Of a stretch of 46,747 bases of DNA, positions 3,333-37,138 are shown piece by piece. The first letter of the stretch is position 1. Every line of letters starts with the position of its first letter. The stretch is taken from IMG/VR virus record IMGVR_UViG_3300045988_113737. The stretch is one strand, 5' to 3'. A program made the position numbers and the translations under genes. The notes beneath the pieces are model-generated. The model searched no databases. It had not been told where the DNA came from and saw only the letters and a list, made by a program, of their open reading frames with translations. This stretch comes from a virus.

Positions 3333-3345
3333 TGCCTAATTTTTT

Positions 3346-3374
3346 AGAATATCATTGGAGAGTGCAAAAGTCAA
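3346..3374 (-). promoter_or_regulatory. Second sigma-70-like promoter between terL and portal
   Basis: Minus strand reads TTGACT-17 nt-TATTCT. Confidence 0.4.
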
Positions 3375-3383
3375 TAATTTCTT

Positions 3384-5039: not shown

Positions 5040-5050
5040 TATACTTCACC

Positions 5051-5377
5051 TCAAATCGCTCCTGCCGCTCGAAAGGCCGCATAAATCTTGGGAGCCTGAC
5101 AAGCAAACCAATCTACCATTTCCTCGTTCTGCGCCCACTCACTGTTCTCAGCCAGTCCGCTTTCAAACAGAAAAGCATGAACAATCTCATGCCGGATATT
5201 TTTCTTCTCCTGTATCTCCAACCGGCCCTTTTCGCCCTGCTGACCTCGCTTATAATTCTCTACCACGATCTCTTTCGTAGTTTCGTCACAAAAGCCGTCA
5301 CACCCTTCAAGCCTTGGCTCGGCCTGTTCGGTGACAAGGTTGACTGTGTACTATGTTCCCAAAATATTTACTACCAT
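5051..5377 (-). CDS. Small HExxH (RHEIVHAF) phage protein interrupted by an in-frame TAG at codon 9
   Basis: ATG at 5377 follows GGAGGTC. Reads MVVNILGT-TAG(5353..5351)-YTVNLVTEQ...RHEIVHAFLFESGLAENSEWAQNEEMVDW. The track ORF 5051..5266 is the downstream part in the same frame. Confidence 0.6.
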
Positions 5378-5387
5378 AATGACCTCC

Positions 5388-5422
5388 AAAAAAAAAGGGC
5401 TACCGGATTTCTCCGATAGCCC
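5388..5422 (-). terminator. Rho-independent terminator
   Basis: Minus strand gggctatcgga-gaaa-tccggtagccc followed by T9. Confidence 0.85.
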
Positions 5423-5463
5423 GTAGTGGCTGTTACTCTTCCCTATTGAAAGAGCCTGTTTGC

Positions 5464-5922
5464 TTATGATGATATTTCTACTGTCAACAATTCGCTTCTA
5501 CTAATCTCAGCAAAATTTGCGTCATTAACGGATAACGAAAATTCCAATTCATCAATCTCACTATAATCAGAAATACCAGCAGTTTCATTATTAAAACTCA
5601 AAGTATATACGATTTCTTTTCCACCTTGCATTGTGGCCGGTACACCACTTACAAACTGCACCATTGTACCATTCACAGAAGAGTCCATAAACAAGACCGT
5701 TATTTCTTCATCACCAAGATTTTTAAGGGTCAAGTTTATTGCTGACATTCCATCAATAGAGGGTAATTCTCCAACTCCTTCAAATTTTACCTCAACATAT
5801 TGGTCTTTGTAAATGGTCTGTGCCGAAGTTTCCGTAGTAGGTTGTTCACTCTCAGAAGAAACAGTGCAAGAGCAAAGACCCAATAGCATAAATGAAAAGA
5901 CGAGATACAGATATTTTTTCAT
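5464..5922 (-). CDS. Lipoprotein (accessory/moron gene; possible surface or exclusion function)
   Basis: MKKYLYLVFSFMLLGLCSC signal peptide with lipobox. ATG overlaps the recombinase stop (ATGA). AT-rich compared with flanking phage genes. Confidence 0.75.
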   Translation of the reverse strand: MKKYLYLVFSFMLLGLCSCTVSSESEQPTTETSAQTIYKDQYVEVKFEGVGELPSIDGMSAINLTLKNLGDEEITVLFMDSSVNGTMVQFVSGVPATMQGGKEIVYTLSFNNETAGISDYSEIDELEFSLSVNDANFAEISRSELLTVEISS

Positions 5923-6509
5923 ACTCGGGCTTCCTTTCTTACCAAATTGTACCATGTAGAACGGCTTATGCTAAGTTCTCTGCAACAATCTCTCACAGTC
6001 ATGGAACCGTCTTTTTGTTTTTGAGCGATTTTCTGAAATTGCACCCGGTCAATAGAGATTGGCTTTCTCCCTTCACGATAGGACGGCTCATGTTCCCGCT
6101 TATATGCTTTTCCAGCAGAGGTTCTTTCCACAATCATATCCCGCTCGTACTCGGCAAAGGCGAATAGCACTGTTACCATCAGCCTACCCATGGGCGTGTT
6201 ATCCGCAACACCCATATTCAGGATATTCACCTTAACGCCCATGTCTACCAGTTGTTTTACCAGCAATGACCCTTCCGCAGCTGTTCTGGCAAGTCTATCC
6301 AGCTTGCACACTATCAACTCGTCACCGGAAGCCAATAAGGACAGAACCTTGTCAAACCCTTCACGGCTCATTTTCTTGCCGGTATATGTGTCGGTGTAAA
6401 TGTTTTCCTCTGGTACACCATGCTCTAAAAGAATATCCTTCTGCTCCTGATATGATGTGCCATATAATTTCTGACCTTTAGAACTGACCCGGCCATAGCC
6501 ATATTTCAT
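5919..6509 (-). CDS. Small serine recombinase (resolvase/invertase family)
   Basis: 196 aa. N-terminal catalytic YGRVSSKGQ, LDRLAR, C-terminal HTH (LSISRSTWYNLV). Confidence 0.9.
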   Translation of the reverse strand: MKYGYGRVSSKGQKLYGTSYQEQKDILLEHGVPEENIYTDTYTGKKMSREGFDKVLSLLASGDELIVCKLDRLARTAAEGSLLVKQLVDMGVKVNILNMGVADNTPMGRLMVTVLFAFAEYERDMIVERTSAGKAYKREHEPSYREGRKPISIDRVQFQKIAQKQKDGSMTVRDCCRELSISRSTWYNLVRKEARV

Positions 6510-6536
6510 TTCTAATCAACGCCTCCTTAACGATTG

Positions 6537-6869
6537 TTAAGTGAGTTTGATTTTACCTCCTTTGCTGATAGGGGACTCTTCTGAGGGTATATCGGTGGAG
6601 AGAAGAGAAGTGAGATCATATTTCTTTTCATCATTTGAAGTAACCTCAAATCCACCCTCTGGTAGACGAGATGTGGCAGGGACAACTACCACTTTATAGT
6701 CCATGGCTCTTACCATTTCACTCAGGAGAGATACTGGAATATCTTTTACATTTTTGTTGTTAAGTCTTTCCCAGATAGTAGCATTGCTTACATTGAGTCT
6801 TTTTGCTAAAACAGCATTGGAAATCCCGGTTGCTTTCATGATGGCTTTTAGAATTTCACGGCCTCTCAT
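6537..6869 (-). CDS. XRE-family helix-turn-helix regulator
   Basis: Start chosen at MRGREIL (AAGGAG RBS). HTH ATGISNAVLAKRLNVSNATIWERL. Confidence 0.75.
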   Translation of the reverse strand: MRGREILKAIMKATGISNAVLAKRLNVSNATIWERLNNKNVKDIPVSLLSEMVRAMDYKVVVVPATSRLPEGGFEVTSNDEKKYDLTSLLSTDIPSEESPISKGGKIKLT

Positions 6870-6891
6870 ACTATCACGCTCCTTGTGGATT

Positions 6892-6934
6892 ATTATAGCA
6901 TAAAGAGTTTTATTGTCAAGAGTTATATTGACAA
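6892..6934 (-). promoter_or_regulatory. Consensus sigma-70 promoter with palindromic operator
   Basis: Minus strand TTGACA-16 nt-TATAAT (6919..6914 / 6897..6892). The -35 lies in the dyad TTGTCAA-N8-TTGACAA (6913..6934). Confidence 0.65.
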
Positions 6935-11049: not shown

Positions 11050-12555
11050 TCAAACAGTTCCTTTCATACGAATATCCCTGTAAGAAGGGTAGCCATTATA
11101 AACGGTCTTTCCTCCGTGCCATTCTGGGTGTGCCTCCATGTCAGCATTAAACCGCTTTGCGCTACACACAAAATAGCCGTTAGACTTACACCAAATTTTA
11201 TAAGCGTCATAGAGTGCCTTGGCTCTTGTGTAGGCACCTCCGGCCTTTTCACACTTTTCCTCCAAAAACTGTAACACCATATCATTGTCCTTCTCATACT
11301 GCTTGACCACCTGACGCATAGCCGGGGACATTTTCAAGTCGAACCGCTTATACTTAAAGTAACCCTCCAAGAGCCAAGTAAAGATACCCTGCATAGCCTC
11401 TGGGGTTTGAAACTCTGTTTTAAGGTTCTTGTCCTGCTCGTCCTCAGAAAAATGCCGGTTGAACTCAATCACTCGCACACGGTCAGAGGCGAACAGGCTT
11501 TTGTCATTGACAGAGGGAAGGTCATTGCAGGAGAGCCAAAGAGTAAACTGCGGGAGGAAGGTGGTAGCGGCTTCATAGAGGTTCCGGGCCTTGATCTCTT
11601 CACCACCGGTAAGCTGCTTGATTGTTTCCTCGTCCAGCCGTCCATACTGATTGCTCTCTGCCATAGTGACAAACCGCTTGCCCTTCAAAGAGGCCAAAAC
11701 AGGGCTTGCAGCTTCGGCGTTCTTGGAGCGGTCGGACTTGCAGATAATGGACACCGGGGACACGGAGGCATAGTCACCGAGAAGATGATGAATGGCACTC
11801 AGAAGGGTAGACTTTCCGTTTCTGGTGGTCTTGCCATGCAGAATGAACATACATTCTTCATTGGCCGTACCTAACATGGAGTAACCGAGAGCCTTTTGCA
11901 GATAGTCGGCCTTATCTGCGTCATTACAGGTAACTTCCTGAATAAACCGCTCCCACCGAGGGCACTCAGCGTCTTGCAGAGTGTAGTCGAAATTGGTCTG
12001 CATGGTCAGAAAGTCGTGCCAATCATGCTCCCGGAACTCCATTTTTTGAAGGTCATAAGTTCCGTTCCGACAGTTAATGAGGTAGGGATTTGCGTCAAAT
12101 TCCTCTGCGGTGATCGGCATGACGCTGGCGGCGTCCTTCATGAGCCGGTCACGGAAACGGCGATCTCCCATCTTAGAGATGAACTTCATGTACTCCCTGC
12201 GGCGGTCTTCATTGTCAATCTCCCCGCAATAGAGAGCCATCAGGCGGCAAAATTCTTTGATTTTTTCCGCCACCAGAAGAGAGCCAATGTCCTTACGCCA
12301 CGCACCCTTTGAATAGGTGTACCAACACTTGGCTTCCGGGCAGAAGCGGGTGTCATTCTGATAGCACTCAGAAAACAGTTCCGCCATGCCAGACTCGTCC
12401 CAAGAATAACCGGTGCCGCTGATCTGGTGACTTCTCTCGGGCTTTGCCTCCTTGATGTAAAACATCTTCTGAGAGAGGTCTTTATCCATGATGTACCGGC
12501 CATTAGAGAGCTGAAAAAGTTCCTGCTCTTCGGTAGTCAAAATTTCATCTGCCAT
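11050..12555 (-). CDS. D5/P4-type primase-helicase (NTPase)
   Basis: 501 aa. Walker A HGKTTRNGKST. Architecture of the phage/plasmid primase P4-family C-terminal domain. Confidence 0.8.
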   Translation of the reverse strand: MADEILTTEEQELFQLSNGRYIMDKDLSQKMFYIKEAKPERSHQISGTGYSWDESGMAELFSECYQNDTRFCPEAKCWYTYSKGAWRKDIGSLLVAEKIKEFCRLMALYCGEIDNEDRRREYMKFISKMGDRRFRDRLMKDAASVMPITAEEFDANPYLINCRNGTYDLQKMEFREHDWHDFLTMQTNFDYTLQDAECPRWERFIQEVTCNDADKADYLQKALGYSMLGTANEECMFILHGKTTRNGKSTLLSAIHHLLGDYASVSPVSIICKSDRSKNAEAASPVLASLKGKRFVTMAESNQYGRLDEETIKQLTGGEEIKARNLYEAATTFLPQFTLWLSCNDLPSVNDKSLFASDRVRVIEFNRHFSEDEQDKNLKTEFQTPEAMQGIFTWLLEGYFKYKRFDLKMSPAMRQVVKQYEKDNDMVLQFLEEKCEKAGGAYTRAKALYDAYKIWCKSNGYFVCSAKRFNADMEAHPEWHGGKTVYNGYPSYRDIRMKGTV

Positions 12556-22755: not shown

Positions 22756-23370
22756 TTACAAATTTCCCCATTGGTCAACCATGGCCTTTGCAATACCGGG
22801 GAAGGTCTTAGACGCTGTTACAGGGTCATGTGCCGTTCCTTTTGACCCTCCGCCTCCACGAGAAAAAGCCCCTGTATTGCTGGGAAGAAATGGAGTGTGT
22901 TCAGTCATGATTTTTGTAGGTTGAAGAGGCGGCAAGCCTTTCAGCCACAAGAGCGTTGCTTTACTGTATGGATGACCATATTCGTAGGGTTGAATGACCT
23001 GTGTAGGGGGGGGAAGTCTTACAACTTTCAATGGCCTTGGGTTCTCAACACAAATTCTGGGACAATCGGCCATTAAAAATCTCATGAAAAACGCTTTCGC
23101 TTTCATAGCGAGGTCATAGCGTTCTTGTGACAACTCTCCCGCCTTGGGGTACATCCATCTGGCTCCTGCCTTGCTCATGTAGGTACAAGGTGGATGGGCG
23201 ATAATCATATCCCACCTGATTTTCAGAATTTCAAGAGCGTCCGCCCGAAGATGATACTCAGGGTGTCCACCACTACACTCTACAAGATCACAACTATAAG
23301 CCTCGTGCCCGGCCTCCCGGAATGCGTTCGCCACGGTCTGGCTCTCTTCACAAGCAACAAGAACTCTCAC
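22756..23370 (-). CDS. Cytosine-C5 methyltransferase-like protein (short form)
   Basis: HPPCTYMS (PPC) and CVENPR (ENV-like) motifs. GTG start overlaps the helicase stop (GTGA). Confidence 0.45.
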   Translation of the reverse strand: MRVLVACEESQTVANAFREAGHEAYSCDLVECSGGHPEYHLRADALEILKIRWDMIIAHPPCTYMSKAGARWMYPKAGELSQERYDLAMKAKAFFMRFLMADCPRICVENPRPLKVVRLPPPTQVIQPYEYGHPYSKATLLWLKGLPPLQPTKIMTEHTPFLPSNTGAFSRGGGGSKGTAHDPVTASKTFPGIAKAMVDQWGNL

Positions 23371-24767
23371 CTTACCGCCCCCTCTAACCAATGACAGCCA
23401 AGTTTGCGGTAAGTGGTACAGCGTTTCTTGAAGCTGCGGACGAGATACTGAATACCGTTGTCCACATAATCATAGACAACAGGTGTCACCTTTCCTTCAA
23501 AGGTACGGGCAACCCGGCCCACACTCTGAGCGATCACGGCATAATCTTTTTGGGGAGTCACTAAATAGAGCCGGTCAAGCCGTGGAATGTCCAGCCCCTC
23601 TTTTGCCAAAGCATAGGTGGCGAAGAGGAAGTGTTTCTTACCGGCTCTCATATCCTCAATGGCTTTTTCTCTTTGAGTTTTACCCTTTTTGGAAGTCATC
23701 TTCCCATCTACCATGACTGACTTATCTCTCAGTTCTTTTGGTAAATGCTTCATGAGATATTCCAAGTGAGAGAGCCTATCGGAGAGAATGAGATTGTAGT
23801 GACTGCCATTAGTCACCAGATCACAGACAATTTGCCCGTTCCGGCGAAAATCCTCAGCCAAATAATTTACCAGTTTCGCATAGATAATCGTGCCGTCAGT
23901 ATCAAGGAACTCTTTACTCAGGCCAATGTTTGTGTACCGGGGAAGAATGCTGACCGTCATGATCTTATCCGCTACGGCTTCGTCCGGCACCTGATAGGCT
24001 ATCTTTCCAAGTAAGGCATAGGTAGCTGCGATCATACCATCTGCCCGGTGAACCGTTGCAGAGAGGCCATATTTATGCCGTGCGGCCAGAGCATTCAGCA
24101 CCTTGGAGAACTGCGTGACTGCGGTAGGTGTACCGGCTACCCGATGGCACTCGTCCACGATGACACAACCCCAAGTGTTCTTATACCGATCAAGGTCGAG
24201 ATTGCACATGGTCTGAACCGTAGCAAAGGTGATACCTCTGCCAATGTGAACCCTTCCCTCGGTGATTGTACCGGTCAAGTCAGGGTTCATATACATCTCA
24301 GCCCGGTTTTTGCTTTGCAGAAGCAAATCTCTCGTGTGGGTCAGCCACAGTGTCTTTTCACCTATCGCACAGGCCAGAGCAATTCCGATCTGGGTTTTTC
24401 CTGAACCCGCCGCACTTTGCAAAATTCCCTTTCCGCTTTCCACCAGGGCGGCTTTCGCCTGTTCCTGATACTCATAGAGGGGAACAACACACTGGTAATC
24501 TACCGGTTCCTGCTTGGCAAATTCCATGGACACATCAATGAACGGGGATAGCCTGAGAACATCATTGAAGCACCCATAAGGGAGAACCAGTGTGTTTGCG
24601 TCCCACTCCATCAGATACAACTTCTGGGGAGTGTTCCCGAGCCAAAGGTTCATTCTGGCCTTTTTGGTGTAGTCCGGGTTTGCCAGTACCAGATTTTTCT
24701 TACACCACGCAATCAGTTCCGGGGAAGGGTCTTCAATGCGAAGCCGGTTTGATACTACCATCCGCAT
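23367..24767 (-). CDS. SF2 DEAD/DEAH-box helicase
   Basis: Walker A AAGSGKTQ, DECH box, QSVGRVAR. Start MRMVV overlaps the resolvase stop. Confidence 0.85.
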   Translation of the reverse strand: MRMVVSNRLRIEDPSPELIAWCKKNLVLANPDYTKKARMNLWLGNTPQKLYLMEWDANTLVLPYGCFNDVLRLSPFIDVSMEFAKQEPVDYQCVVPLYEYQEQAKAALVESGKGILQSAAGSGKTQIGIALACAIGEKTLWLTHTRDLLLQSKNRAEMYMNPDLTGTITEGRVHIGRGITFATVQTMCNLDLDRYKNTWGCVIVDECHRVAGTPTAVTQFSKVLNALAARHKYGLSATVHRADGMIAATYALLGKIAYQVPDEAVADKIMTVSILPRYTNIGLSKEFLDTDGTIIYAKLVNYLAEDFRRNGQIVCDLVTNGSHYNLILSDRLSHLEYLMKHLPKELRDKSVMVDGKMTSKKGKTQREKAIEDMRAGKKHFLFATYALAKEGLDIPRLDRLYLVTPQKDYAVIAQSVGRVARTFEGKVTPVVYDYVDNGIQYLVRSFKKRCTTYRKLGCHWLEGAVR

Positions 24768-25165
24768 TTCAACACCCACGCTTCCAGAGGAAGCCCATAC
24801 TGACGAATATCCGGGAGGTAGATAGATTTCCGGTTCAGCATGAAACTTTCCATATCTGCCAGAGATAGGAACCAGATTTCTTCGTTTGTCAGGAGAAGAG
24901 CGAACCACCCTTCACCGTTCCCAGTCTGCCTCCACAATCTCATAGCCGAATACTGATTTTCTTCAATTCGATCAAGACGGAAAATGTTTTTCTCGCACAC
25001 CTTACAGTCAATGGGATAGGTGTTACCGTGTCGAGCTGCGATCACATCGAAAGGCTGACCCTGCTTGTTCTGAGCGAGGTTGTGCGCCCAGAAGCCAAAA
25101 TCCGAAAGCCTACGGCATAGTGTCTGCTCGAAGGAAGTGCCTACCTTGCGGTTATCATTGGTCAT
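24755..25165 (-). CDS. Hjc-like PD-(D/E)xK Holliday-junction resolvase
   Basis: GTSFEQ..., QPFDVIA, YPIDCKV. Start MTNDN after GGAGAG. Confidence 0.6.
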   Translation of the reverse strand: MTNDNRKVGTSFEQTLCRRLSDFGFWAHNLAQNKQGQPFDVIAARHGNTYPIDCKVCEKNIFRLDRIEENQYSAMRLWRQTGNGEGWFALLLTNEEIWFLSLADMESFMLNRKSIYLPDIRQYGLPLEAWVLKCGW

Positions 25166-25400
25166 GGAAATCACTCTCCATTTCCGCAATGTGTACCGTC
25201 AGGTCGTGAACCTTGGCTTTCAGGTCTGTAATAGACCTTGCCAGATTGTTTTCTCGTTCGGCCTGTTCTTCCCGCAAGGCTCTGAAATACTTTAGAGCGT
25301 CAAAGCCCATATACTTGTCAATCAGGTATTCGAGATCGTCAACAGAGAACAGGGTTTCGTTCTTTCCGTTTATCAGCGTAATAACCCTTGGGTATTGCAT
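25155..25400 (-). CDS. Hypothetical protein (81 aa, coiled-coil C-terminus)
   Basis: Track ORF with AAAGGAGAAG RBS. Confidence 0.6.
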   Translation of the reverse strand: MQYPRVITLINGKNETLFSVDDLEYLIDKYMGFDALKYFRALREEQAERENNLARSITDLKAKVHDLTVHIAEMESDFHDQ

Positions 25401-25416: not shown

Positions 25417-25434
25417 CCGCCCCTTCCGGGGCGG
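25417..25434 (-). promoter_or_regulatory. GC hairpin downstream of VR2 (DGR target-recognition-type element)
   Basis: ccgcccc-ttcc-ggggcgg, 20 nt past the stop codon. Same sequence as 35956..35973. Confidence 0.7.
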
Positions 25435-25453
25435 GATGATACGGGATTTTGGA

Positions 25454-26269
25454 TTAAACGCAGAAGCCGAAGGACACACCATACGAGATGCTGGCGCCGT
25501 TATTGTTGGCGTCACCCGAGGCGTCCACAGGGCAGAAACTGGTGGTGTGGTCGCTACGAGGCGAACGCTCCCACCGCCAATCCCGCTCACCGTTCTGCTT
25601 GCACTTTCCGTATTCGGTATTCTCCTGACGATACCAGTCATACCACTTGCCTTCTCCGCCGATAGAGTAAATCTTCCGGCCAAAAATCTCCTGCTCGGAG
25701 AGGATAAACAGAGGATCAGAGGTCATCCCGATCTTCTGACTACCACCGCCCAGACAGGTTTCCTTCAAGCAAGGTTTGATGACACTGAGTAAATCGTCAG
25801 GAAGCAGTTCGATGATGGAATTGTTCAACATCTTGCGGAGCTGAGAATTCTGCCAACCACCCTTGTTCGTGTATTCCGGGTTCATCTGAAAATCATCATT
25901 GAGGGTTTCCACCGTTTCAAAGCTGATCGGGAGGATATTGCTGTGCTTGTCTCTATCATGATTGAAACCGATGATACGGACATGAATGGTGGTGCCATCT
26001 TTCAGCTGCACCGTCTTGGTATCACCCAGAGAGAAAACCTTATCGGCCATTCCGCTCTTGCCGTACATATCAATCTCGGCCCAAGAGCAATCGTCCAGTT
26101 TCATCTTCGGGAGATCAGGAATACCGTAAATCCGGCCATCGGCGGGAACCTTGCAACAGGGACAAACAGGAGGCTTCTGCATGGAGGCAATGACTTCTTT
26201 CTGGTAATTGATCGTCCGCTCCATGCGGTCAAACTCAGCTGCAAGCTGGGAAAATACATTCTTATTCAT
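25454..26269 (-). CDS. DGR target protein 2 (remote variable protein)
   Basis: C-terminus WRWERSPRSDHTTSFCPVDASGDANNNGASISYGVSFGFCV is encoded by VR2. Body is homologous to 35993..37138. Confidence 0.85.
   Translation of the reverse strand: MNKNVFSQLAAEFDRMERTINYQKEVIASMQKPPVCPCCKVPADGRIYGIPDLPKMKLDDCSWAEIDMYGKSGMADKVFSLGDTKTVQLKDGTTIHVRIIGFNHDRDKHSNILPISFETVETLNDDFQMNPEYTNKGGWQNSQLRKMLNNSIIELLPDDLLSVIKPCLKETCLGGGSQKIGMTSDPLFILSEQEIFGRKIYSIGGEGKWYDWYRQENTEYGKCKQNGERDWRWERSPRSDHTTSFCPVDASGDANNNGASISYGVSFGFCV
25460..25575 (-). repeat. DGR variable repeat VR2
   Basis: Gap-free alignment to TR 35343..35458. 16 of 17 mismatches are at TR plus-strand T (coding-strand A). Confidence 0.85.
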
Positions 26270-26309: not shown

Positions 26310-26546
26310 TCAAATTGAGCATTTACGCTTGCCGCTTTTCGGTCTGCTACACCGGGAGCGGCTTTTCTTTTTCTGCGTGGGGTAAAAGGCTCCGGCCAGT
26401 TTGCAGAACACATAGAAACAGGCCAAGGCTAAGATCATGTGGATTGTCCCGGTGCCGAGGGATAACATATCCTGTTCCACAGCTCCGATTGTTCCATAGA
26501 GCCAGAAGAACGAGGCTACGGCTAAAAACCCAGATACTTTTCTCAT
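26310..26546 (-). CDS. Small membrane protein (2 TM, basic tail)
   Basis: Two hydrophobic segments followed by KKKSRSRCSRPKSGKRK. ATGA overlap with the upstream gene. Confidence 0.55.
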   Translation of the reverse strand: MRKVSGFLAVASFFWLYGTIGAVEQDMLSLGTGTIHMILALACFYVFCKLAGAFYPTQKKKSRSRCSRPKSGKRKCSI

Positions 26547-26998
26547 GCAATCACCTCGTCCATGGCTCGGAACACATCAGACAGTTCTTCCAAACTTTCA
26601 TACTTCGCTTTGAATACCTGCATATCCGCTTTGGCTTTCAGGAGCAAATTCGTTCTAAGTTCGTTATCCGACAGAACCCTTGAAATGCTTAGATAAGACC
26701 GGGTATCATTTACTTTGGTGTTCACAAAGGCTCTTACGGGAACGGACTCTTTTGAGGGTCTTTCCTCCACCACGGTTATCTGCCGGATGAAATATGCGGC
26801 CTGATCTTCTCGGTACTTTTCAGCTGCAACATTGTCATCCCATTCAAAGTCATCATGGAGGGGAGAACCAATCTCTCTGTTTGCGTCAAGCAGATTTTTG
26901 GGTGTAAGACCGCCTGTTTCTTCAAGCCGCCTCATTTGCTCTCCCGCCGCTTGTGGGTCTGCCTTAACACAAGCAAGCGGTTTCCATTGAAAAACCAT
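26543..26998 (-). CDS. Hypothetical early protein (151 aa)
   Basis: AAAGGAGGAAAA RBS. PLHDDFEWDDNVAAEKYREDQAAYFIRQI. Confidence 0.6.
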   Translation of the reverse strand: MVFQWKPLACVKADPQAAGEQMRRLEETGGLTPKNLLDANREIGSPLHDDFEWDDNVAAEKYREDQAAYFIRQITVVEERPSKESVPVRAFVNTKVNDTRSYLSISRVLSDNELRTNLLLKAKADMQVFKAKYESLEELSDVFRAMDEVIA

Positions 26999-27039
26999 AA
27001 TTTTCCTCCTTTCTTCAAACTACCGTACCTTGGCCCACG

Positions 27040-27440
27040 GCACCCCGAGATAACACACCTGAACCAACCCCGCCTGCCGTGCCTAACACCACCATGCCTC
27101 ACTTCACCTTGCCATAAGCGAACTCACCAAGCCTGCCTTACCGAAACTTACCTGAATTTACCTAAACCATCCTCGCCTCTCCAAACCTCACCTTGCCTGC
27201 CTTGAAAGAACCTTGCCTCAACTGACCAAACCTTACCTTGCGATAACAAACCGAACCATGCCTGCCATGCCAGATCACGCCACGCCATACCGAACCTTAC
27301 CCTTACACGCCGTACCTGCCATAACTGAACACTCCATGCCTTGGCTCTCCACATTAGACCTTACCGGAACCCGCCTAACCTGCCGAGCCGTAACCAGACA
27401 AGCCTAAACTAAACGCACCTGAACTAAACACACCTGCCAT
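27040..27440 (-). repeat. Strand-skewed spacer without credible coding potential, carrying 7 periodic CCTGCC (minus-strand GGCAGG) motifs
   Basis: Plus strand is C/A-rich and G-poor. CCTGCC at 27073, 27132, 27196, 27261, 27315, 27379 and 27433. Dense GG-N3-GG on the sense strand. Confidence 0.8.
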
Positions 27441-27442
27441 AT

Positions 27443-28078
27443 TCAGCACACATGGTATCTACCGTAATTTCCGCCCTTTTCCGGCCTCCACTCACCGATA
27501 CCAACGGCAAAACCGCCAAGATTGAAGAGGTTACACAGCTGAGCCAGAGAAAGAACACCGGCGTTGTATTTGACAGTGAAGGTGATAGACCAATCAGAGA
27601 ACTCAGCACGGTAGCGAATATCAGCCGTCCCCATGCCGACACGAACCATGTCCTCTCGAATTTGAGGAACCCCGTTGATCTCCACATACTCTTCGTCAAT
27701 GTGAAAAGCTCCGTTCATCTCGACTTTGTTCTTAGTGACACCGGCTCTGAAACCAGCGGACACAGCAGAAGCCTTTACGCCGACAGCGGGGAAGCCAAAT
27801 TTCGCTCCATTTTCAAGAGCCTTTTGAAATTCCTCCGGGGTATTGTGTTCGGGCTTGCCGGAAAGGAAGTAGATAGTATCGACAAAATCAGAGAAGGGGT
27901 CTTTTGCGTCATGCCCCTTAGTGGTAGCAACCTTCATCTGCTTATCCAACATCATCTTCTTAGCCTTTTCGCTCCACTTATGGACGATCAGGGGACTGTC
28001 ACCCTTGATGGTGATGGGGGCCGTGCGAATGTCGATTGCCGGGATGGTGATGACTTCGGTTTCCTTTTTAACTGCCAT
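27443..28078 (-). CDS. Conserved early phage protein, function unknown
   Basis: Start at MAVKKE after GGAGGA. ...GIGEWRPEKGGNYGRYHVC C-terminus. Confidence 0.6.
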   Translation of the reverse strand: MAVKKETEVITIPAIDIRTAPITIKGDSPLIVHKWSEKAKKMMLDKQMKVATTKGHDAKDPFSDFVDTIYFLSGKPEHNTPEEFQKALENGAKFGFPAVGVKASAVSAGFRAGVTKNKVEMNGAFHIDEEYVEINGVPQIREDMVRVGMGTADIRYRAEFSDWSITFTVKYNAGVLSLAQLCNLFNLGGFAVGIGEWRPEKGGNYGRYHVC

Positions 28079-28253
28079 TACTAATTCCTCCATTTATAGG
28101 TTTCCATTGATACTTCTTGCCATATTTTTGTTCATACCAACTCTCAAATGCTTTCCGGTGTTCTTCATCGGTGAAATACTCCCGGACTCTCTGAACCAGC
28201 AACAGGCTTGCGGCTCTGGCCTGAGCTTGCACCTCTGGTACAAACACACTCAT
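28068..28253 (-). CDS. Hypothetical protein (61 aa)
   Basis: ATGA overlap with the upstream gene. Confidence 0.5.
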   Translation of the reverse strand: MSVFVPEVQAQARAASLLLVQRVREYFTDEEHRKAFESWYEQKYGKKYQWKPINGGISNGS

Positions 28254-28549
28254 GGCTCCTTACACGGCCCCATGCGCTCCTGATACTCTCGCAGAATGGA
28301 AAGGGAACGGCGAAGAATTTCATCCGCCTTACTACCAGTTCGGACACCGGCCAGTGTTGCCGACATTTCAAACTTATCGGTCATCAGTCCTTCATCGGAC
28401 AACTGCCGAATGAGCCATGTGTAGGTCAGACTGAAACCTTCCACGAGGGTTCTGATCTGCTCTGCAATGCTGGTGCGCTCAGGTTCACTCAGCCGTACCA
28501 CAAGTGCGTCAGATGTCCAATAGGGGCGAGGGGTGGGGGTTGCTCCCAT
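28250..28549 (-). CDS. First early gene; possible RHH/Cro-like regulator
   Basis: Start at MGATPT after AAGGGAGG. VVRLSEPERTSIAEQIRTLVEG is RHH-like. Divergent from the repressor gene. Confidence 0.4.
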   Translation of the reverse strand: MGATPTPRPYWTSDALVVRLSEPERTSIAEQIRTLVEGFSLTYTWLIRQLSDEGLMTDKFEMSATLAGVRTGSKADEILRRSLSILREYQERMGPCKEP

Positions 28550-28597
28550 CGTGTTACCTCCCTTCATTCGATTTACAACAAAAGTTATAAATTATCC

Positions 28598-28753: not shown

Positions 28754-28782
28754 AGTATAATCCCTATATGGTGAATTGTCAA
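28754..28782 (-). promoter_or_regulatory. Early lytic promoter (consensus -35)
   Basis: Minus strand TTGACA-17 nt-TATACT. Its -10 overlaps a plus-strand TATAAT (28756..28761). Flanked by TCCCTAT/ATAGGGA dyads. Confidence 0.6.
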
Positions 28783-28827
28783 TAGGGAAATTAGGGATTT
28801 TTCAAAAAATTATTTGAGGTGCATACT

Positions 28828-29205
28828 ATGACTTTTATTGAGAGGCTTGAACAATTAAGACAAGAGAAAGGTATTACCCGGAAAAAATTGCTGGAAGACT
28901 GTAAATTAGGGAAAAATCAATTCACTTACTGGGAGAAAAATAATGCCATTCCGACACCATCTGTATTGTTTGTTTTGGCCCGTTACCTCAAAGTTACGCC
29001 CGAGTATTTATTGGGAGAGAGTGACGATAAAGAAAAAGAAACAAGTGATATAGAGGCATTGCCTGATCTTGAACAAACTCTTTTGTTTTGCTTTGAAAAT
29101 TGTGACGCAATGGGTCAAATGCGTATTATTCAACTTGCCATGAACGAACACGATAGAACGCAAAAAGAAAAAACAGGCTCTACGGGAGAGTCTGTTATCG
29201 GCTAA
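28828..29205 (+). CDS. cI-like XRE-family repressor
   Basis: HTH ITRKKLLEDCKLGKNQFTYWEKNN. GAGGTG RBS. Divergent from the early operon, upstream of the integrase. Confidence 0.75.
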   Translation: MTFIERLEQLRQEKGITRKKLLEDCKLGKNQFTYWEKNNAIPTPSVLFVLARYLKVTPEYLLGESDDKEKETSDIEALPDLEQTLLFCFENCDAMGQMRIIQLAMNEHDRTQKEKTGSTGESVIG

Positions 29206-29418: not shown

Positions 29419-29430
29419 GAGGTGTGCTGT

Positions 29431-31086
29431 ATGAAGAAGTTCAAATTCCCCATCGACCTGTCCATGCTGACAGAGGAAGAGATCAACCAATTCCGGGAAG
29501 ACCCCTCCACTCTGTTTCAAGGCGAGATTGATGTATGTCTTTACCTCCGGTTTAGTTCAGAACGGCAAAAGGAACAGTCTATTGAAGGACAGCTACGGGA
29601 CTGTATAGCCCATTGCAAACGGAAGAGTTACCGAATTGTAGCCATCTTCGTTGACCGTGCTACCACGGCCCGAAAAGATGTAGAGAAACGAGTCCACTTC
29701 CAAGAGATGATTACGGCCAGCGTACACCAGACATGGAAACTGGTCATCGTGTGGAAACTTGACCGCTTTGCCCGGAACCGGGAAGATAGTGCCGTCTTCA
29801 AAATGAGGCTCAGGAAGAACGGTGTCAAGGTTGAATCCGCCACCGAAGGTATTTCCAAAAACCCGGAAGGTATCATCTTGGAAGCCGTCTTGGAGGGTAT
29901 TGCTGAATACTACTCCGCTGACCTCTCCCAGAAGATCACCCGAGGCATGAGAGAGTCCGCTTTGAAGTGTCACAGCATAGGAGGCCATGTTCCCCTCGGC
30001 TACAAGATTGAAGATCACAGACTGGTCATCAATCCCAATACCGCTCACATTGTCCAGGAGGCTTTTGAACTCTATGCCAATGGAGAAACCGTGGCCGATA
30101 TTTGCCGTATGTTCAACACAAAAGGCTACCGGACAGCCAAGGGAGCCGAATTCAACCGGAACAGTTTCAAATCCATGTTCCGAAACAAACGGTATATCGG
30201 GGTCTATACCTACAAAGAGATCGAGAAGGAAGGTGGTGTTCCAGCGATCATCGACAAGGAACTATTTGAAACCGTCCAAAGACGGCTCTCAGCCAATGCA
30301 GAAGCCCCGGCAAGGGGCAAGGCTAAGGTAGATTACCTCTTGGCCGGAAAACTGTTCTGCGGCCATTGTGGAGGCTCTATGAACGGGGAAAGCGGCACCA
30401 GTAAGACCGGAGCCATTCACCATTATTACTCTTGTTATTCAAGAAAGCGACACCACTCTTGCGATAAGAAGCCTCTCAGGAAAGAGTGGATTGAACAGAT
30501 CGTGGCTCAGGACGCTATGGAGCTGCTGACCGATGACGCTATTCAGGAAATGGCTGATATGGCAATCTCCCAAACAGAAAAGGACTTGCGGGAAAATACT
30601 CGCATTCCTGAACTGTCCGAAAGGATGAAGGAAACTGAGAGCGGTATCGCCAATATCACAAAGGCCGTGGAGAAAGGCATTGCCTCTGACGCTCTCATGA
30701 GCCGTCTGGTGGAACTGGAAAAGGAAAAGAAAAATCTTCTCCGGTTGATAGCCGAAGAAGAAAAGTATGTCTGTAAAATCGACAGAGATCAGATTGTCTA
30801 TTGGCTTACCAAATTCAAGAACGGCAACATTGAAGACGAGAACTTCAAGAGGATTATCATTGATCTCATGGTAAACTCAGTCACAGTATGGGACGAGCCT
30901 GACGACTTCCGTATTACCACCGCATATAATCTAACCTCCTGCAAAAACAAGACTTTCCGAATACCCTCTTCCTCTGATAAGGGGTTCGGATTTGAGGGGT
31001 TAGAGTCCACCATTGAACGCAAATCCGAACCCTGCTTTGTGTGGGGGACGATTTTCGTTCAAACAAAAAGACACTCCTTGCCGTAA
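29431..31086 (+). CDS. Large serine recombinase (integrase)
   Basis: Catalytic LYLRFSSERQ, resolvase plus recombinase domains, zinc ribbon CGHCGG...CYSRKRHHSC, coiled-coil C-terminus. Confidence 0.9.
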   Translation: MKKFKFPIDLSMLTEEEINQFREDPSTLFQGEIDVCLYLRFSSERQKEQSIEGQLRDCIAHCKRKSYRIVAIFVDRATTARKDVEKRVHFQEMITASVHQTWKLVIVWKLDRFARNREDSAVFKMRLRKNGVKVESATEGISKNPEGIILEAVLEGIAEYYSADLSQKITRGMRESALKCHSIGGHVPLGYKIEDHRLVINPNTAHIVQEAFELYANGETVADICRMFNTKGYRTAKGAEFNRNSFKSMFRNKRYIGVYTYKEIEKEGGVPAIIDKELFETVQRRLSANAEAPARGKAKVDYLLAGKLFCGHCGGSMNGESGTSKTGAIHHYYSCYSRKRHHSCDKKPLRKEWIEQIVAQDAMELLTDDAIQEMADMAISQTEKDLRENTRIPELSERMKETESGIANITKAVEKGIASDALMSRLVELEKEKKNLLRLIAEEEKYVCKIDRDQIVYWLTKFKNGNIEDENFKRIIIDLMVNSVTVWDEPDDFRITTAYNLTSCKNKTFRIPSSSDKGFGFEGLESTIERKSEPCFVWGTIFVQTKRHSLP

Positions 31087-31109
31087 ATGGCAGGGAGTGT
31101 CCTCTTTTT
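31071..31109 (+). terminator. Rho-independent terminator of the integrase gene
   Basis: 12-bp stem acactccttgcc/ggcagggagtgt followed by cctcttttt. Confidence 0.8.
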
Positions 31110-33168: not shown

Positions 33169-33636
33169 TCAGCCCTCCCATTTCTGCCAAGCGGCGGCGT
33201 AATCTCCGGGGCTATAAGCAGTCCCATTCGGGTCAATACACTCGTAGATATTCCCGTCCGTCCATACCATAAACTCTCCCTGGCGGTACATATCATGTGC
33301 GCCCTGAACAGGAACATAGGGACGGGCCGTGTCCGGGCTTTTGCCATGCAGAGGCCGGTTGAAGGTGTACCATGCGGCATTTCCGGGAACAATGTCCGGG
33401 TACACCGCATTGTCGTAAGCCTGAAAACACTCCCAGGTCTGCTCCCATTCAGAGCCAAGGCCGTCCCCGGCATGGGTGTTGAAAATTTCTCCGACAGTGT
33501 GATTTCCTTTCACCCAATCGAGGTAAAGCCCGGAAGCCTTGATCTTCTGGTCATCGTCCTCAACCTGTTTCCCTTCCAGCATGAGCCGGGACATATAAAT
33601 TGCACTGGACAGAGCGTTCAACATTTTCTCGTTCAC
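33169..33636 (-). CDS. Hypothetical protein (155 aa)
   Basis: Track ORF. Aromatic-rich. Confidence 0.55.
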   Translation of the reverse strand: MNEKMLNALSSAIYMSRLMLEGKQVEDDDQKIKASGLYLDWVKGNHTVGEIFNTHAGDGLGSEWEQTWECFQAYDNAVYPDIVPGNAAWYTFNRPLHGKSPDTARPYVPVQGAHDMYRQGEFMVWTDGNIYECIDPNGTAYSPGDYAAAWQKWEG

Positions 33637-33935
33637 AGAGATAACCCCCTCTCGATTGCCGCCGCAATAGCGTCCACATCGGCCTGTTCTGCCTTGCCTT
33701 TAAGAATGGCCTCTTGCTCCTTCTGGTAGGCAACCTCGCTGATCGTGGTCACGCTCACGGTTTCTTTTCCTTCCAGTTCACTCCTACCCTCAATGTGGTA
33801 CACAGACCCCTCGATCACAATGCCGTGTGCCTGTTCCTCTGTGCATAGGCCGTAGCACCCGTTGTTCTGCATTTTGACCCACACAGGGGTTGTCACCGTT
33901 GCCAGAGGTGTTCCATCTTTGAGAATTCGATACAT
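33633..33935 (-). CDS. Hypothetical protein (100 aa)
   Basis: Track ORF. Overlaps the low-complexity 3' tail of the RT ORF. Confidence 0.5.
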   Translation of the reverse strand: MYRILKDGTPLATVTTPVWVKMQNNGCYGLCTEEQAHGIVIEGSVYHIEGRSELEGKETVSVTTISEVAYQKEQEAILKGKAEQADVDAIAAAIERGLSL

Positions 33936-35079
33936 TTCTTTCCCAGCCTTTCTTGTTCGGATAGAAGCCGAACATGAATTTGAAATACTGATTGGTGTTC
34001 TCTCGCACCTTAAAACTGTTTCCTCGCTTCATGTGCCCGTGATAACTCTCTACGGAACTCCGAATGTCCGCAACCGTCATCTCACCTCTTTCCCACTTTC
34101 CATGAAAGGTTCGCAGCTTACGCCGAATGATCTTGGTAGAGTCAGGGTTCATCTTCAAAATGACCTTGCCGCTCGAGGTGAGAATGAATTTGGTCTTCAA
34201 CCACCGGTAGAAATCAGCCAGCGGAATAACCCGAGTTTTCTTCCAATTTAGCCGCAGACCTAACTTCCGGGTCATCTCTTCCAGCCCAAACATTCCTTCG
34301 GTTCTGAGAAAATCAATGTCCTCATGAATGGCATATCCATCGTCCATATACCGGGCGTAGCCTTTAATACGAAGTTTTTCCTTGAAATAGTGGTCAATCG
34401 GACTTGGAAGAAGCAGGGCATTTGTCTGAGAGATTTGACTTCCAAGCCCTAAGCCCACTGGCCCGAAATCCGCAATGAAGCTGTCATGCAGGGAGCGTAC
34501 ACGGTCATCATGGAGCCGCCGCTTTGCTTCCGCAGCTAAGGGGTCATGTGGTGCTTCATCGAAATAACTCTTGAAGTCAAAAATCAGAATGCCACCGGCC
34601 AGACCATGTTTCCGATAGTGCTTCTGCAAGTGGCAGATCATACGCCGCAGGGCGAAGTCCATACCACGGTGTTTCAAACTGGCCGAGTTGTCATAGATGA
34701 AAGAAGATGAATAAATCGGAACAATGCAGTAATCGCACAGGCACTTTTGCACGGCCCGTTCTGTGATATGGACAGAGCGGATATACCGTTTCTTACCACG
34801 CTCCATGATGGTGAACTCATGGAAGCCACGGTGGTAGAAATTACCCTCGTTCAGCGATCTCGCTGTCAGGGCAATGTTCGGGATGATATTGCCGATATAG
34901 CGTTGTGTAGAAGATTTCCAATAAACACCTTTACAGCACTTCTTTCCCGAAAGATATAGGTGTCGAAAAGAAAAGACCTCTTCAAAATCCCCACAGGCCA
35001 TACTTCGCTTTCTGCGAGCCTCTTCCCGTTTGGCCTTTCTTCTTTGATAACGGATTTCTCTTCTCTCCGCACTGGTCAT
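33790..35079 (-). CDS. DGR reverse transcriptase
   Basis: LGSQISQ (LGxxxSQ) and YMDD motifs. Start MTSAERRE after GGAGGG. Immediately downstream of TR. Confidence 0.9.
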   Translation of the reverse strand: MTSAERREIRYQRRKAKREEARRKRSMACGDFEEVFSFRHLYLSGKKCCKGVYWKSSTQRYIGNIIPNIALTARSLNEGNFYHRGFHEFTIMERGKKRYIRSVHITERAVQKCLCDYCIVPIYSSSFIYDNSASLKHRGMDFALRRMICHLQKHYRKHGLAGGILIFDFKSYFDEAPHDPLAAEAKRRLHDDRVRSLHDSFIADFGPVGLGLGSQISQTNALLLPSPIDHYFKEKLRIKGYARYMDDGYAIHEDIDFLRTEGMFGLEEMTRKLGLRLNWKKTRVIPLADFYRWLKTKFILTSSGKVILKMNPDSTKIIRRKLRTFHGKWERGEMTVADIRSSVESYHGHMKRGNSFKVRENTNQYFKFMFGFYPNKKGWERNVSNSQRWNTSGNGDNPCVGQNAEQRVLRPMHRGTGTRHCDRGVCVPH

Positions 35080-35342
35080 GAAAAAGATTTCCCTCCGTAC
35101 AGTATGATTGTGGGGTACGGGTTCTAACTGCGTAGTAATACCAGCCATGAAATGAGCTACCGTACAATCACTCACCATGCAAGAAGCGTCCGGCTGATTA
35201 CATCGGAGTGCCCCTTTCGGGGAGGGCGCATTTCAAACGATGTGCCCGGAAGTTTTAGCCAATAGGCAGGGTACAAGTCCTCCCTCTGCAAAAGGTACTG
35301 ATTTCACCCAATGGGGTTACTACGACTGACCTATACGAAGTT

Positions 35343-35473
35343 GCAGAGTCCGAAGGACACACCATTCGAGTTGCTGGCGTTGTTATTGTTGGCGTTACCC
35401 GAGTTGTTCACATTGCAGAAATTGTTGGTGTTGTCGCTATTAGGCGAACGCTCCCACCAGTTGTTCGCAGAAC
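35343..35473 (-). repeat. DGR template repeat (TR)
   Basis: 131 nt homologous to VR1 and VR2. Coding strand is rich in AAC/AAT. Followed by a structured spacer (ccccgaaagggg). Confidence 0.9.
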
Positions 35474-35512
35474 AGGCAAGGTTTAACAGGACTTGACCCA
35501 TATTAGAGAAAA

Positions 35513-35941
35513 CTAATCAGGAAGGTCTTTATACCTTTTCCGATCAGATTTCTTCACACTGGAAATCAGCTTGGCTTCATCTACGATATACTCTCCGAAC
35601 TCCTGAATAGCGTGGTCAATCCAAGGGTACTTTTCTGGGTTTTGGAGAATAGCGTCATAGAGAAGGGCTAACTTCGGACTGAGGTTTTGCAGGGCAATAT
35701 TGGCTCTGGTAAGACAGTCCCGGCGCATTTGTGCTTCATGCTTGTTTGTGGGGTAGATGTTATTGGCCGCTCTCACCTCGTCATGAACCGTAGAACACAG
35801 GTGCATGATCGGATAGAGAAGGTATGGGCCGTACCTTTTCGGTGCTTTGGTGACTACGGAGAAAGCGTGAAGTTCCAATCTCCTTGCGGTTTCAATGAAC
35901 TGCACATTGCTTTCTCCCCGCATAAATTTTGGGACTGACAT
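35513..35941 (-). CDS. avd: Accessory variability determinant (Avd-like four-helix-bundle protein)
   Basis: 142-aa helical basic protein between the target gene and TR, the canonical DGR position. Confidence 0.7.
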   Translation of the reverse strand: MSVPKFMRGESNVQFIETARRLELHAFSVVTKAPKRYGPYLLYPIMHLCSTVHDEVRAANNIYPTNKHEAQMRRDCLTRANIALQNLSPKLALLYDAILQNPEKYPWIDHAIQEFGEYIVDEAKLISSVKKSDRKRYKDLPD

Positions 35942-35955: not shown

Positions 35956-35973
35956 CCGCCCCTTCCGGGGCGG
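35956..35973 (-). promoter_or_regulatory. GC hairpin downstream of VR1
   Basis: ccgcccc-ttcc-ggggcgg, 20 nt past the stop codon. Identical to 25417..25434. Confidence 0.7.
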
Positions 35974-35992: not shown

Positions 35993-37138
35993 TTAAACGC
36001 AGAAGCCGAAGGACACACCATACGAGGAGCTGGCGGCGCTAAAGTTGGCGTCACCCGAGTTGTACACACTGCAGAAATAGTAGGTGTTGTCGCTACAAGG
36101 CGAACGCTCCCACCAGCTGTTCGCAGAACCATTGACCTTTTTGATCGTGGTGTTTCCAGCGGCATAATACTCATACTGAGTACCTTCACCAGCAAAAGAG
36201 TAGGTGGTAGCACCGAAAATCTCAATCTCAGACAGCAGGAACAACTTATCCTGAGTAGTCTGGATAGAAGAGGACTGATTGCCAGCGGAAGTCCGCTTAT
36301 TGACCGTCTTGATGACATTTCGCAGAGCCGCAGGGAGTTGACCCAGATAGGTACTCATACGGCTACGCATGGCAGAACTGTTCCAGCCACCGGCGTTCGT
36401 GTTAGAGCTGTTCATGTTTGCAGTCTGATTGAAGCAGTCCACAAGCTGGAAGGTGATACCGGCCATTCCACCAGAAGTCAACTGATCGTGGTCAAAGCCG
36501 ATAATCTGAACCTTGTAGTTCGTACCGTTAATGCTGACGGTCTTCTGATCGCCCACGGAGAAATAATTCTTGGCCTGTCCGAACTGAGAACACAGAGCGA
36601 TTTCAGACCAATCGGTCTGCTCCAAGGTGCCCGTGATATTGAAGGGGTAGACATACACAATGCCAATGACTTCCAGCGTATAGGTCTTGGTCTTCTGAGA
36701 GCCGCCGTAGGTGTATTTGATAGACCAATCTCCCAGCTCGGCGGGATAGAGAACGGCTTCTCCACCAGAGGCCACAGCGGAAAGAACAGTGTCCCCCTTG
36801 GTCATGGTGACGGTGGTGCCGTTATCGGCATAGACATGGCACTCAGCCGGAGAACCCTTCTGGCTCAGGGCGTAGAGAGCGTCATTCACCGTGGGGTCAG
36901 CCCCATCCAGTTCCAGTGCCGCTTTCGTAGTGTCATCCAGCAGATTTGCTTTACTCAGAGGTGTTCCCACCACATCACAACCGGCGTTTGCACCGGTGGT
37001 GTCGGTATTTAGAACAACATCTAAGTAGCCGTTTCCGGCGATCAGCTGTTGCCTCCATTCCTCGAAGGTAGCAGGCATATCGGAAGGTGCCCGAATAATA
37101 CTGGATTTTCCGTTGCCTTTGATGGTGGTGTCTTTCAT
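35993..37138 (-). CDS. DGR target protein 1 (tail fibre / receptor-binding candidate)
   Basis: Last gene of the tail module. C-terminus WWERSPCSDNTYYFCSVYNSGDANFSAASSSYGVSFGFCV is encoded by VR1. Confidence 0.85.
   Translation of the reverse strand: MKDTTIKGNGKSSIIRAPSDMPATFEEWRQQLIAGNGYLDVVLNTDTTGANAGCDVVGTPLSKANLLDDTTKAALELDGADPTVNDALYALSQKGSPAECHVYADNGTTVTMTKGDTVLSAVASGGEAVLYPAELGDWSIKYTYGGSQKTKTYTLEVIGIVYVYPFNITGTLEQTDWSEIALCSQFGQAKNYFSVGDQKTVSINGTNYKVQIIGFDHDQLTSGGMAGITFQLVDCFNQTANMNSSNTNAGGWNSSAMRSRMSTYLGQLPAALRNVIKTVNKRTSAGNQSSSIQTTQDKLFLLSEIEIFGATTYSFAGEGTQYEYYAAGNTTIKKVNGSANSWWERSPCSDNTYYFCSVYNSGDANFSAASSSYGVSFGFCV
35999..36129 (-). repeat. DGR variable repeat VR1
   Basis: Gap-free alignment to TR (offset 656). 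17 of 18 mismatches are at TR plus-strand T (coding-strand A). Confidence 0.9.

Follow-up and report, generated by a model that had tools for sequence, protein, structure and literature searches.

Can a single DGR diversify two proteins, one of them coded kilobases away among the early genes of a temperate phage, and if it can, what might a hypervariable protein do there? The question is raised by the window (the whole stretch of phage DNA that was analysed, 46,747 nucleotides long), in which a DGR cassette and its cassette-proximal target (T1) lie at the end of the tail module, and in which the gene of a second protein (T2), in the early region, ends in a variable repeat (VR2) of the same template repeat (TR). 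Two-target DGRs and remote targets are already established in the literature, and remote small DUF6273 targets have been published for Toutatisvirus, Lelie and CP11; the present case concerns another phage group and another small-target family. An earlier note on this DNA had proposed that one reverse transcriptase (RT) and one TR diversify both proteins, and that the second could be a variable binder made early or in the lysogen rather than a structural receptor-binding protein (RBP). The features on which the argument rests are collected in Table 1.

An ungapped scan of the whole window with the 116-nt TR segment 35343..35458 returned exactly two matches, VR1 at 35999 and VR2 at 25460, each identical to the TR at 99 of 116 positions. 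On the coding strand there are 17 mismatches between VR2 and the TR, 16 of them at TR adenines (seven A>C, seven A>G and two A>T) and the other a C>T change, which confirms the gap-free, adenine-centred alignment that had been claimed. The substitution pattern was also said to differ between the repeats, and indeed VR1 has the same mismatch totals but another substitution spectrum, partly at other positions. The last two mismatches (A>C and C>T) are the same in VR1 and VR2 and invariant in relatives, the TR reading GGACTCTGC and the VRs GGCTTCTGC; they are better read as a fixed IMH/IMH* distinction than as mutagenesis, a reading which leaves 15 mutagenic A-site differences per VR. The asparagine positions of the TR are coded by AAY codons, a typical trait of DGRs.

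The two repeats also have their cis signals in common, as the earlier note had described. The stop-proximal block gcagaagccgaaggacacacc is identical at 25460..25480 in VR2 and 35999..36019 in VR1, and the hairpin CCGCCCC-GGAA-GGGGCGG stands about 26 nt past the stop codon of either target, at 25417..25434 and 35956..35973. No such hairpin was found in the 3' flank of the TR, and the TR has neither the GC-rich 3' block nor the hairpin in the form common to the VRs. The IMH is invariant among 11 close relatives, and the hairpin downstream of VR2 is identical in the nine close relatives with sequence reaching that far. VR2 thereby combines the features expected of a DGR target, namely VR-TR differences at A sites, a cognate RT, accessory protein and TR, an IMH distinct from IMH*, and a downstream hairpin.

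Table 1. Features of the DGR, its two targets and the early region, with positions in the window and strand.
Feature	Position	Strand	Remarks
Hairpin/cruciform element downstream of VR2	25417..25434	-	7-bp GC stem, GGAA loop (folding)
VR2, variable repeat of the remote target	25460..25575	-	ungapped 99/116 identity to TR; codes the last 38 residues of T2
IMH-like GC-rich 3' block of VR2	25460..25480	-	coding sense GGTGTGTCCTTCGGCTTCTGC; two bases different from TR IMH* (…GGACTCTGC)
Target 2 (T2) CDS, 271 aa	25454..26269	-	N-terminal helix, Cys/Pro linker, DUF6273, C-terminal VR; 187 homologues
DEAD/ResIII helicase, replication/recombination module	23367..24908	-	profile matches
RecU/Hjc-type Holliday-junction resolvase	24755..25189	-	profile matches
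81-aa coiled-coil-like protein	25155..25400	-	downstream of T2; only in a subset of relatives (20/85 loci)
Small 2-TM membrane protein TM78, 78 aa, basic C-terminal tail	26310..26546	-	directly upstream of T2
Putative Cro-like regulator, 105 aa, first early gene	28250..28567	-	inferred; place conserved among relatives
Promoter-like site TTGACA-17-TATACT for the T2-containing early operon	28754..28782	-	11/12; consensus match only
HTH repressor	28819..29205	+	divergent from the early operon
Large serine recombinase (integrase)	29422..31086	+	prophage junction near its 3' end
DGR reverse transcriptase	33790..35079	-	RVT_1; phrog_1423, E 3e-68
Structured RNA between TR and RT, Rfam RT-2 RNA	35071..35334	-	152 bits, E 4e-36; spacer part of the DGR RNA
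Template repeat (TR)	35343..35474	-	VR1 matches the full span, VR2 only 35343..35458
Avd accessory protein	35513..35941	-	phrog_30516, phrog_3206
Hairpin downstream of VR1	35956..35973	-	folding
VR1, variable repeat of the cassette-proximal target	35999..36130	-	99/116 to TR segment 35343..35458
Target 1 (T1) CDS, 381 aa, DUF6273	35993..37138	-	end of tail module

The variation of VR2 in nature was followed in relatives of T2, of which a search of a collection of 5.8 billion proteins found 187, most of them full-length (~265-280 aa), at identities down to 43%. The 90%-identity clusters of these relatives hold 485, 1564, 2565 and 7308 distinct sequences, among others, and in the seven clusters that we sampled the variation was concentrated at residues templated by TR adenines, with up to nine different residues among 13 sequences at one VR site and the remaining protein nearly invariant. 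All 182 T2 family members with an intact VR had a unique one, as did 111 of 114 for T1. Among 11 genomes at least 91% identical in T2, the varying sites comprised 31 of 34 TR-A sites, 17 of 82 non-A sites and 81 of 700 sites outside the VR. Outside the VR, T2 has a dN/dS of 0.08-0.22, indicating purifying selection, and the pN of the VR amounts to 0.15-0.31 even where the dN of the body is 0.005. The earlier note had contemplated an invariant VR2 next to a variable VR1; run across genomes and metagenomes, this comparison found VR2 to vary as much as VR1, with IMH and hairpin kept. With its sequence features and a hypervariability at TR adenines equal to that of VR1, the proposal that one RT and one TR diversify two proteins is strongly supported, and these sequence comparisons equally strongly support VR2 as an actively diversified second DGR target in nature.

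The same data bear on the possibility that VR2 is not a direct retrohoming site and acquires its variation second-hand, by gene conversion from VR1. With identical 3' flanks and about 80% identity, VR1 and VR2 are similar enough for recombination, and in contig L030 Avd and RT follow straight on from the T2 body, an arrangement that a VR1/VR2 crossover or a mis-assembly would produce. However, the IMH and hairpin of VR2 are its own and do not vary across relatives, and within every genome examined the two VRs differ at 17-34 positions. Moreover, no VR sequence is common to the T1 and T2 sets (114 and 182 VRs), and the homology of VR2 to the TR begins about 16 nt later than that of VR1, which reaches that much further 5'. 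We regard gene conversion as a very unlikely source of the variation and infer retrohoming into VR2 from these sequence patterns.

The body of T2 had been described as paralogous to T1, which is borne out by 44% identity over 227 aa (E 3e-56); both proteins are DUF6273 (PF19789), and the N-terminal 160 aa of T1 have no counterpart in T2. The DUF6273 match of T2 covers residues 125-265, with 48.8 bits against a cut-off of 23.5 (E 1e-12). A hydropathy scan revealed no transmembrane segment, nor does T2 begin with a signal peptide, its N-terminus being a charged helix. This helix is predicted at residues 3-30 and conserved in the family as MNxxIxQLxAEFEKMEKTIAxQKK, and in the family alignment the linker between it and the DUF6273 body varies in length, with CPC(C/G) often but not always there. 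As regards the distinct N-terminus pointed out in the earlier note, the helical segment stands as a prediction, whereas the CPCC motif is only partly kept in the family.

A first full-length AF2 model of T2 was poor (pLDDT 68.5); a model of residues 50-271, built on a 106-sequence alignment, reached a pLDDT of 82.6 and a pTM of 0.84, with the VR loop not resolved. Foldseek comparison of the two models with the PDB, the better model lacking a resolved VR loop, yielded no significant match and no C-type-lectin structure, and a profile search of PDB sequences with T2 gave chance matches only. Among predicted viral structures (BFVD), the model matches DUF6273 proteins with E down to 1e-13, among them several that are small and stand alone and one of 730 aa that carries the annotation tail-collar fibre (TM 0.82). 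The literature assigns a C-type-lectin fold to DUF6273, and a C-type-lectin/DUF6273-like fold had been anticipated for T2; DUF6273 was confirmed by Pfam, but a C-type-lectin structure, such as the Mtd-like one of Bordetella phage BPP-1, was not recovered from the PDB by Foldseek. The PHROG-function, NCBIfam and defence (PADLOC) libraries gave nothing meaningful for T2; for TM78 and the neighbours of T2, there was no PADLOC match and nothing meaningful in NCBIfam.

The surroundings of the gene speak to when T2 may be made. Going leftward on the minus strand, the tail genes lead to T1, Avd, TR and RT, then to unknown genes, a holin-like gene and the endolysin. Left of the endolysin lie the plus-strand integrase and HTH repressor, then the promoter-like site, the Cro-like gene, several small genes, TM78 and T2, and left of T2 follow the 81-aa protein, resolvase, helicase, methyltransferase and DNA polymerase, and then Erf, a RecE-like exonuclease and thymidylate synthase. 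T2 is divided from the late operon by the integrase and repressor genes, stands close to the genes on either side and has a good ribosome-binding site. A consensus scan found neither a promoter-like nor a terminator-like site of its own, so that, given the tight packing, T2 would most simply be a member of the early operon. The placement that had been described for it, among early genes, between a small membrane protein and recombination genes and outside the virion module, is supported by a gene order kept in 85 loci. Expression in the lysogen, which had also been suggested, is unsupported, since T2 runs in the same direction as the lytic early operon and away from the repressor, and has no promoter-like site of its own.

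The contig carries a 55-bp terminal direct repeat and is therefore a circular assembly, in which the 9.9 kb between TR and VR2 span the integrase/attP region. L001 (a 181-kb contig) and L005 (Oscillospiraceae bacterium CM18GR_63) are integrated prophages; in both, the integrase borders directly on host DNA, with T2 about 3.2 kb from that end of the prophage. Homology of the window with integrated prophages ends at 31012. In the integrated form the DGR core must lie at the opposite end, about 37 kb from T2. The distance of 9.9 kb from the DGR core, as first given, is accordingly true for the circular form, whereas in integrated prophages T2 and the core are at opposite ends, and homing into VR2 would therefore be a trans event.

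This arrangement is widespread. In IMG/VR, 382 contigs code for a T2 relative, 80 of which were examined. Some 30 loci have 8 kb or more of sequence upstream of T2; in 27 of them a TR lies ~7.3-7.5 kb upstream and VR1 ~660 nt beyond it, and in these 27 almost all TR-VR2 mismatches fall at TR adenines and none at VR2 adenines. The remaining three, with no DGR within 10 kb beyond the integrase, appear to be integrated prophages that have host DNA in that position. Over 85 loci the gene order is essentially fixed as integrase, repressor, Cro-like gene, TM78, T2, an optional 81-aa protein, resolvase and helicase, with the integrase at -3.0 to -3.3 kb, TM78 at -0.28 kb and the resolvase at +0.9 to 1.1 kb relative to T2. 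The Cro-like gene is found 0.67-0.76 kb upstream of T2 in 83 of these 85 loci and TM78 just upstream in 84. A two-gene insert upstream of the TM78 gene (26543..28093) is present in the window and two relatives. Genome contigs point to the following hosts: Oscillospiraceae bacterium CM18GR_63, Dysosmobacter segnis (strain BX15 carries a relative) and an uncultured Dysosmobacter.

Searching from the side of TM78, we found T2 directly after it in 76 of 80 loci; two of the other four are truncated, and in L131 and L149 the T2 slot is either taken by an unrelated 137-aa gene or empty. T2 is absent, then, from two of 78 otherwise syntenic phages. An obligate pair of TM78 and T2 is rejected by these two loci, where TM78 occurs without T2; the T2 slot is therefore accessory, and judged by gene order T2 is a near-universal but dispensable occupant of a slot in the early operon. 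These absences, together with the fact that no library searched gave a functional annotation of T2, could be taken to mean that T2 arose by duplication of the T1 C-terminal domain and is now decaying, a functionless off-target of the DGR. The purifying selection seen on the body (dN/dS 0.08-0.22), however, effectively refutes decay, which also sits badly with intact full-length ORFs down to 43% identity, a conserved N-terminal helix and the 382 relatives in IMG/VR, so that we consider this explanation hardly credible at all. In our view it is close to certain that T2 is a heavily used second DGR target and that it is a soluble DUF6273 protein under selection, with a fixed place in the early operon of a large group of temperate Oscillospiraceae phages.

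At the diversified positions T1 and T2 use residues in nearly identical proportions (Tyr 19/19%, Asn 19/21%, Ser 15/15%, Gly 12/12%, Asp 9/10% and Pro 0.1/0.4%, each pair being T1/T2), and this test can therefore separate neither the RT spectrum from selection nor the functions of the two proteins. The near-equal use fits a common mutational spectrum, similar selection, or both. It also fits the same kind of job, and so could be cited for T2 being an ordinary part of the virion, a second receptor-binding or decoration protein held on tail or head by its N-terminal helix. The 44% identity to the tail-adjacent T1 points the same way, as does a DUF6273 fold common to proteins annotated as tail-collar fibre or RBP, and receptor binding is the working assumption of the literature for small DUF6273 targets. 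We nevertheless hold a virion role to be unlikely. In 85 loci the T2 gene has its fixed place in the immediate-early operon, beyond the integrase and repressor from the late operon and not in the late structural module; T2 is without the N-terminal 160 aa of T1, and in place of an N-terminal attachment domain or any detectable virion anchor there is only the 30-aa helix and linker. Two syntenic phages do without T2, and the small targets of Toutatis (verified here) and probably of CP11 (by coordinates) also stand in the early region, not the structural one.

A conventional tail-fibre subunit is thus the less likely identity for T2, and a non-structural binder expressed early is plausible, fitting both the operon position and the lack of a virion-anchoring domain. 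Taken as a whole, T2 is probably a genuine, actively mutagenised second target of the single DGR that serves as a non-virion variable binder made early; for the non-virion role on its own, as read from gene order and domain content, we would put the chances at even or marginally above. More tentatively, and with rather less confidence, T2 might be a soluble early binder that acts in or on the infected cell, possibly with TM78, and recognises variable molecules of the host or of rival phages, an early function that would have arisen repeatedly. Possible roles of a non-virion T2 include receptor masking, superinfection exclusion and counter-defence, that is, an 'antibody-like' early function of the phage.

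The closest published parallels support the idea of recurrence. The iLund4u preprint (Egorov & Atkinson, 10.1101/2024.10.15.618418) describes, for 173 Toutatisvirus phages whose host is Faecalibacterium, a further DUF6273 gene with a VR, a core gene 17.5 kb away from the TR, and suggests that it codes for an RBP; the phages Lelie and CP11 have 'large and small' DUF6273 targets whose function was called unclear (Gulyaeva et al., PMC11792537). FP_Toutatis and Lelie resemble the window in having a single Avd-TR-RT cassette where the tail module ends and two DUF6273 targets, the proximal one large and the remote one small and part of the core genome. Checking FP_Toutatis directly, we found the remote gene, gp24 (11505..12152), among the early genes, with repressor genes on one side and the replication initiator on the other. 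Its VR (11932..12035) has 14 mismatches to the TR (49076..49179), and at 13 of these the TR has an adenine. FP_Toutatis differs in being a myovirus with a Faecalibacterium host, in the internal VR of gp24, which is followed by a C-terminal helix, and in having no TM78-like neighbour. Membership of T2 in the gp24 family was rejected, BLASTP between the two finding no similarity (best E 0.96), and the architecture is only analogous.

CP11 likewise has two VRs per TR, both in DUF6273 targets, with variation at both across cognate genomes (PMC11792537) and the remote VR, by coordinates, about 5 kb from the prophage end. Compared by its published description, it differs in a TR of 105 nt, a proximal VR 1.9 kb from the TR and a Faecalibacterium host; with these differences in TR length and VR spacing, and with Oscillospiraceae/Dysosmobacter hosts on our side, the window is probably not prophage CP11. 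From the placement of gp24 and the coordinates of CP11 it follows that the early small-target layout is recurrent across lineages: a DUF6273 target of the small stand-alone type, placed among early genes and diversified in trans from a DGR at the tail end, would recur in at least two and probably three of them. The papers on Toutatisvirus, Lelie and CP11 contain no remark on the early-region placement.

Other systems are more distant. The gut phages nd4 and nd12 (tentaclin and tgt2; Baykov et al., PMC10743442) share the use of one TR for two DUF6273 targets, one of them a small single-domain protein with flanking short helices, but both targets are described within the DGR cassette, the VR of target 1 is near its N-terminus, and the phages are myoviruses. 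The Hoc-like/tentaclin target of Mushuvirus (10.64898/2026.05.08.723808) sets a precedent for a DUF6273 DGR protein of a gut prophage with a role beyond the virion. It differs as a large Ig-domain protein in an accessory module adjoining the DGR and is expressed during lysogeny, for which T2 offers no support. With BPP-1 the window shares the adenine-specific transfer from TR to VR, a GC-rich IMH as opposed to the IMH* of the TR, Avd and RT, a GC hairpin with a 4-nt loop downstream of the VR, and the position of the VR at the C-terminus of the target (Mtd). Unlike BPP-1, which has a single adjacent tail-fibre target, it has a second target kilobases off and in another transcription unit.

By analogy with BPP-1, the late-region cassette would supply the TR with its RT-2 RNA, Avd and RT for the synthesis of adenine-mutagenised cDNA, and this cDNA would home in trans into any site with the IMH block and a downstream GC hairpin. 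Two such sites exist here, VR1 and VR2, and the latter would be reached across 9.9 kb on the circular replicative genome and about 37 kb in the integrated prophage. Going by gene order, T2 would be transcribed with the early genes, after the Cro-like gene and TM78 and before the resolvase, helicase and polymerase genes. Its DUF6273 domain, set behind the N-terminal helix of about 30 aa and the linker, may bind ligands, and the role of the protein could be, for example, to mask or engage variable molecules of the host envelope or of competitor phages.

Large DGR surveys did not look for remote targets, and searches confined to the vicinity of the RT miss them, as stated explicitly by Roux et al. 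(2021). Here, a remote target as intensely diversified as the canonical one lies in the immediate-early operon and is conserved in hundreds of contigs of gut Oscillospiraceae phages, and, as far as gene maps can tell, the case would exemplify DGR homing in trans across ~37 kb of integrated prophage. We believe that its interest lies in the conserved placement in the early operon, the recurrence across lineages and the question of what a hypervariable binder does there. If T2 is non-structural, phage DGRs diversify functions other than adsorption, and T1 and T2 would then form a tractable pair, with the same TR and fold but different expression timing, with which to probe hypervariable binders in or on infected cells.

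The surroundings of T2, the remote DGR target, were compared across 85 related loci. The gene of a conserved two-TM protein lies immediately upstream of T2 in all but one of them (84/85) and is a core early gene in this phage group. Its product has a holin-like topology and an invariant EQ motif in the loop, usually as GAVEQD, and found no match in Pfam, PHROGs, NCBIfam or PADLOC. Upstream of this gene, the window carries inserted DNA relative to close relatives, which is common only to loci L021 and L031; the integrated relatives L001 and L005 are without it.

Coordinates of features in the window
Feature	Position	Strand	Remarks
Terminal direct repeat	1..55 and 46693..46747		55 bp, exact
Two-TM protein	26310..26546	-	78 aa; conserved; two TM helices, basic C-terminal tail
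Insertion	26515..28101		two genes, 151 aa (phrog_15946) and 216 aa (phrog_4652), plus a 68-aa ORF
Region at end of homology with integrated prophages	about 31012..31100		probable attachment crossover at or near integrase 3' end
ORF next to RT	33633..33935		146-nt overlap with C-terminal tail of RT ORF
RT ORF	33790..35079	-	429 aa; odd C-terminal tail of ~45 aa
RT-2 RNA motif (Rfam)	35071..35334	-	152 bits; occupies spacer from TR to RT start

The exact repeat at both termini indicates that the assembly is circular and the genome complete (~46.7 kb), and feature-to-feature distances can therefore be measured in either direction. In comparison with the integrated prophages L001, L005 and L007, nucleotide homology ends at 31012, inside the integrase gene at its 3' end, and the integrase is longer in all three prophages (595 aa in L001). 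The attachment crossover probably lies there or close by.

Within the DGR cassette, the RT-2 RNA motif is presumably the structured portion of the DGR RNA. The RT is longer in the window than in the relative L003 (382 aa). The two targets differ in their database relatives: among the matches listed for T1, the cassette-proximal target, dozens (382 aa, about 71-72% identity to the query) are singleton 90%-identity clusters, whereas relatives of T2 fall into very large clusters. From these sequence comparisons, T1 seems to have additional diversity beyond its VR.

T2 is absent from two otherwise syntenic phages, L131 (3286..3699) and L149 (3195..3280); in one of them its slot is filled by an unrelated 137-aa gene, and in the other the resolvase comes directly after the two-TM gene. 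The database proteins P0104 and P0115, of 385-429 aa, carry an Hjc domain in addition to DUF6273; they appear to be read-through or gene-call products in which T2 is fused to the resolvase that follows it. In the 6.9-kb contig L030 (IMGVR_UViG_3300029406_000101; about 3115..6900), Avd and RT come immediately after T2, and a TR-like repeat is also present. Such an arrangement reflects either a crossover between VR1 and VR2 or an assembly chimera formed via the shared VR flanks, and it serves as a warning for the assembly of genomes of multi-target DGR phages.
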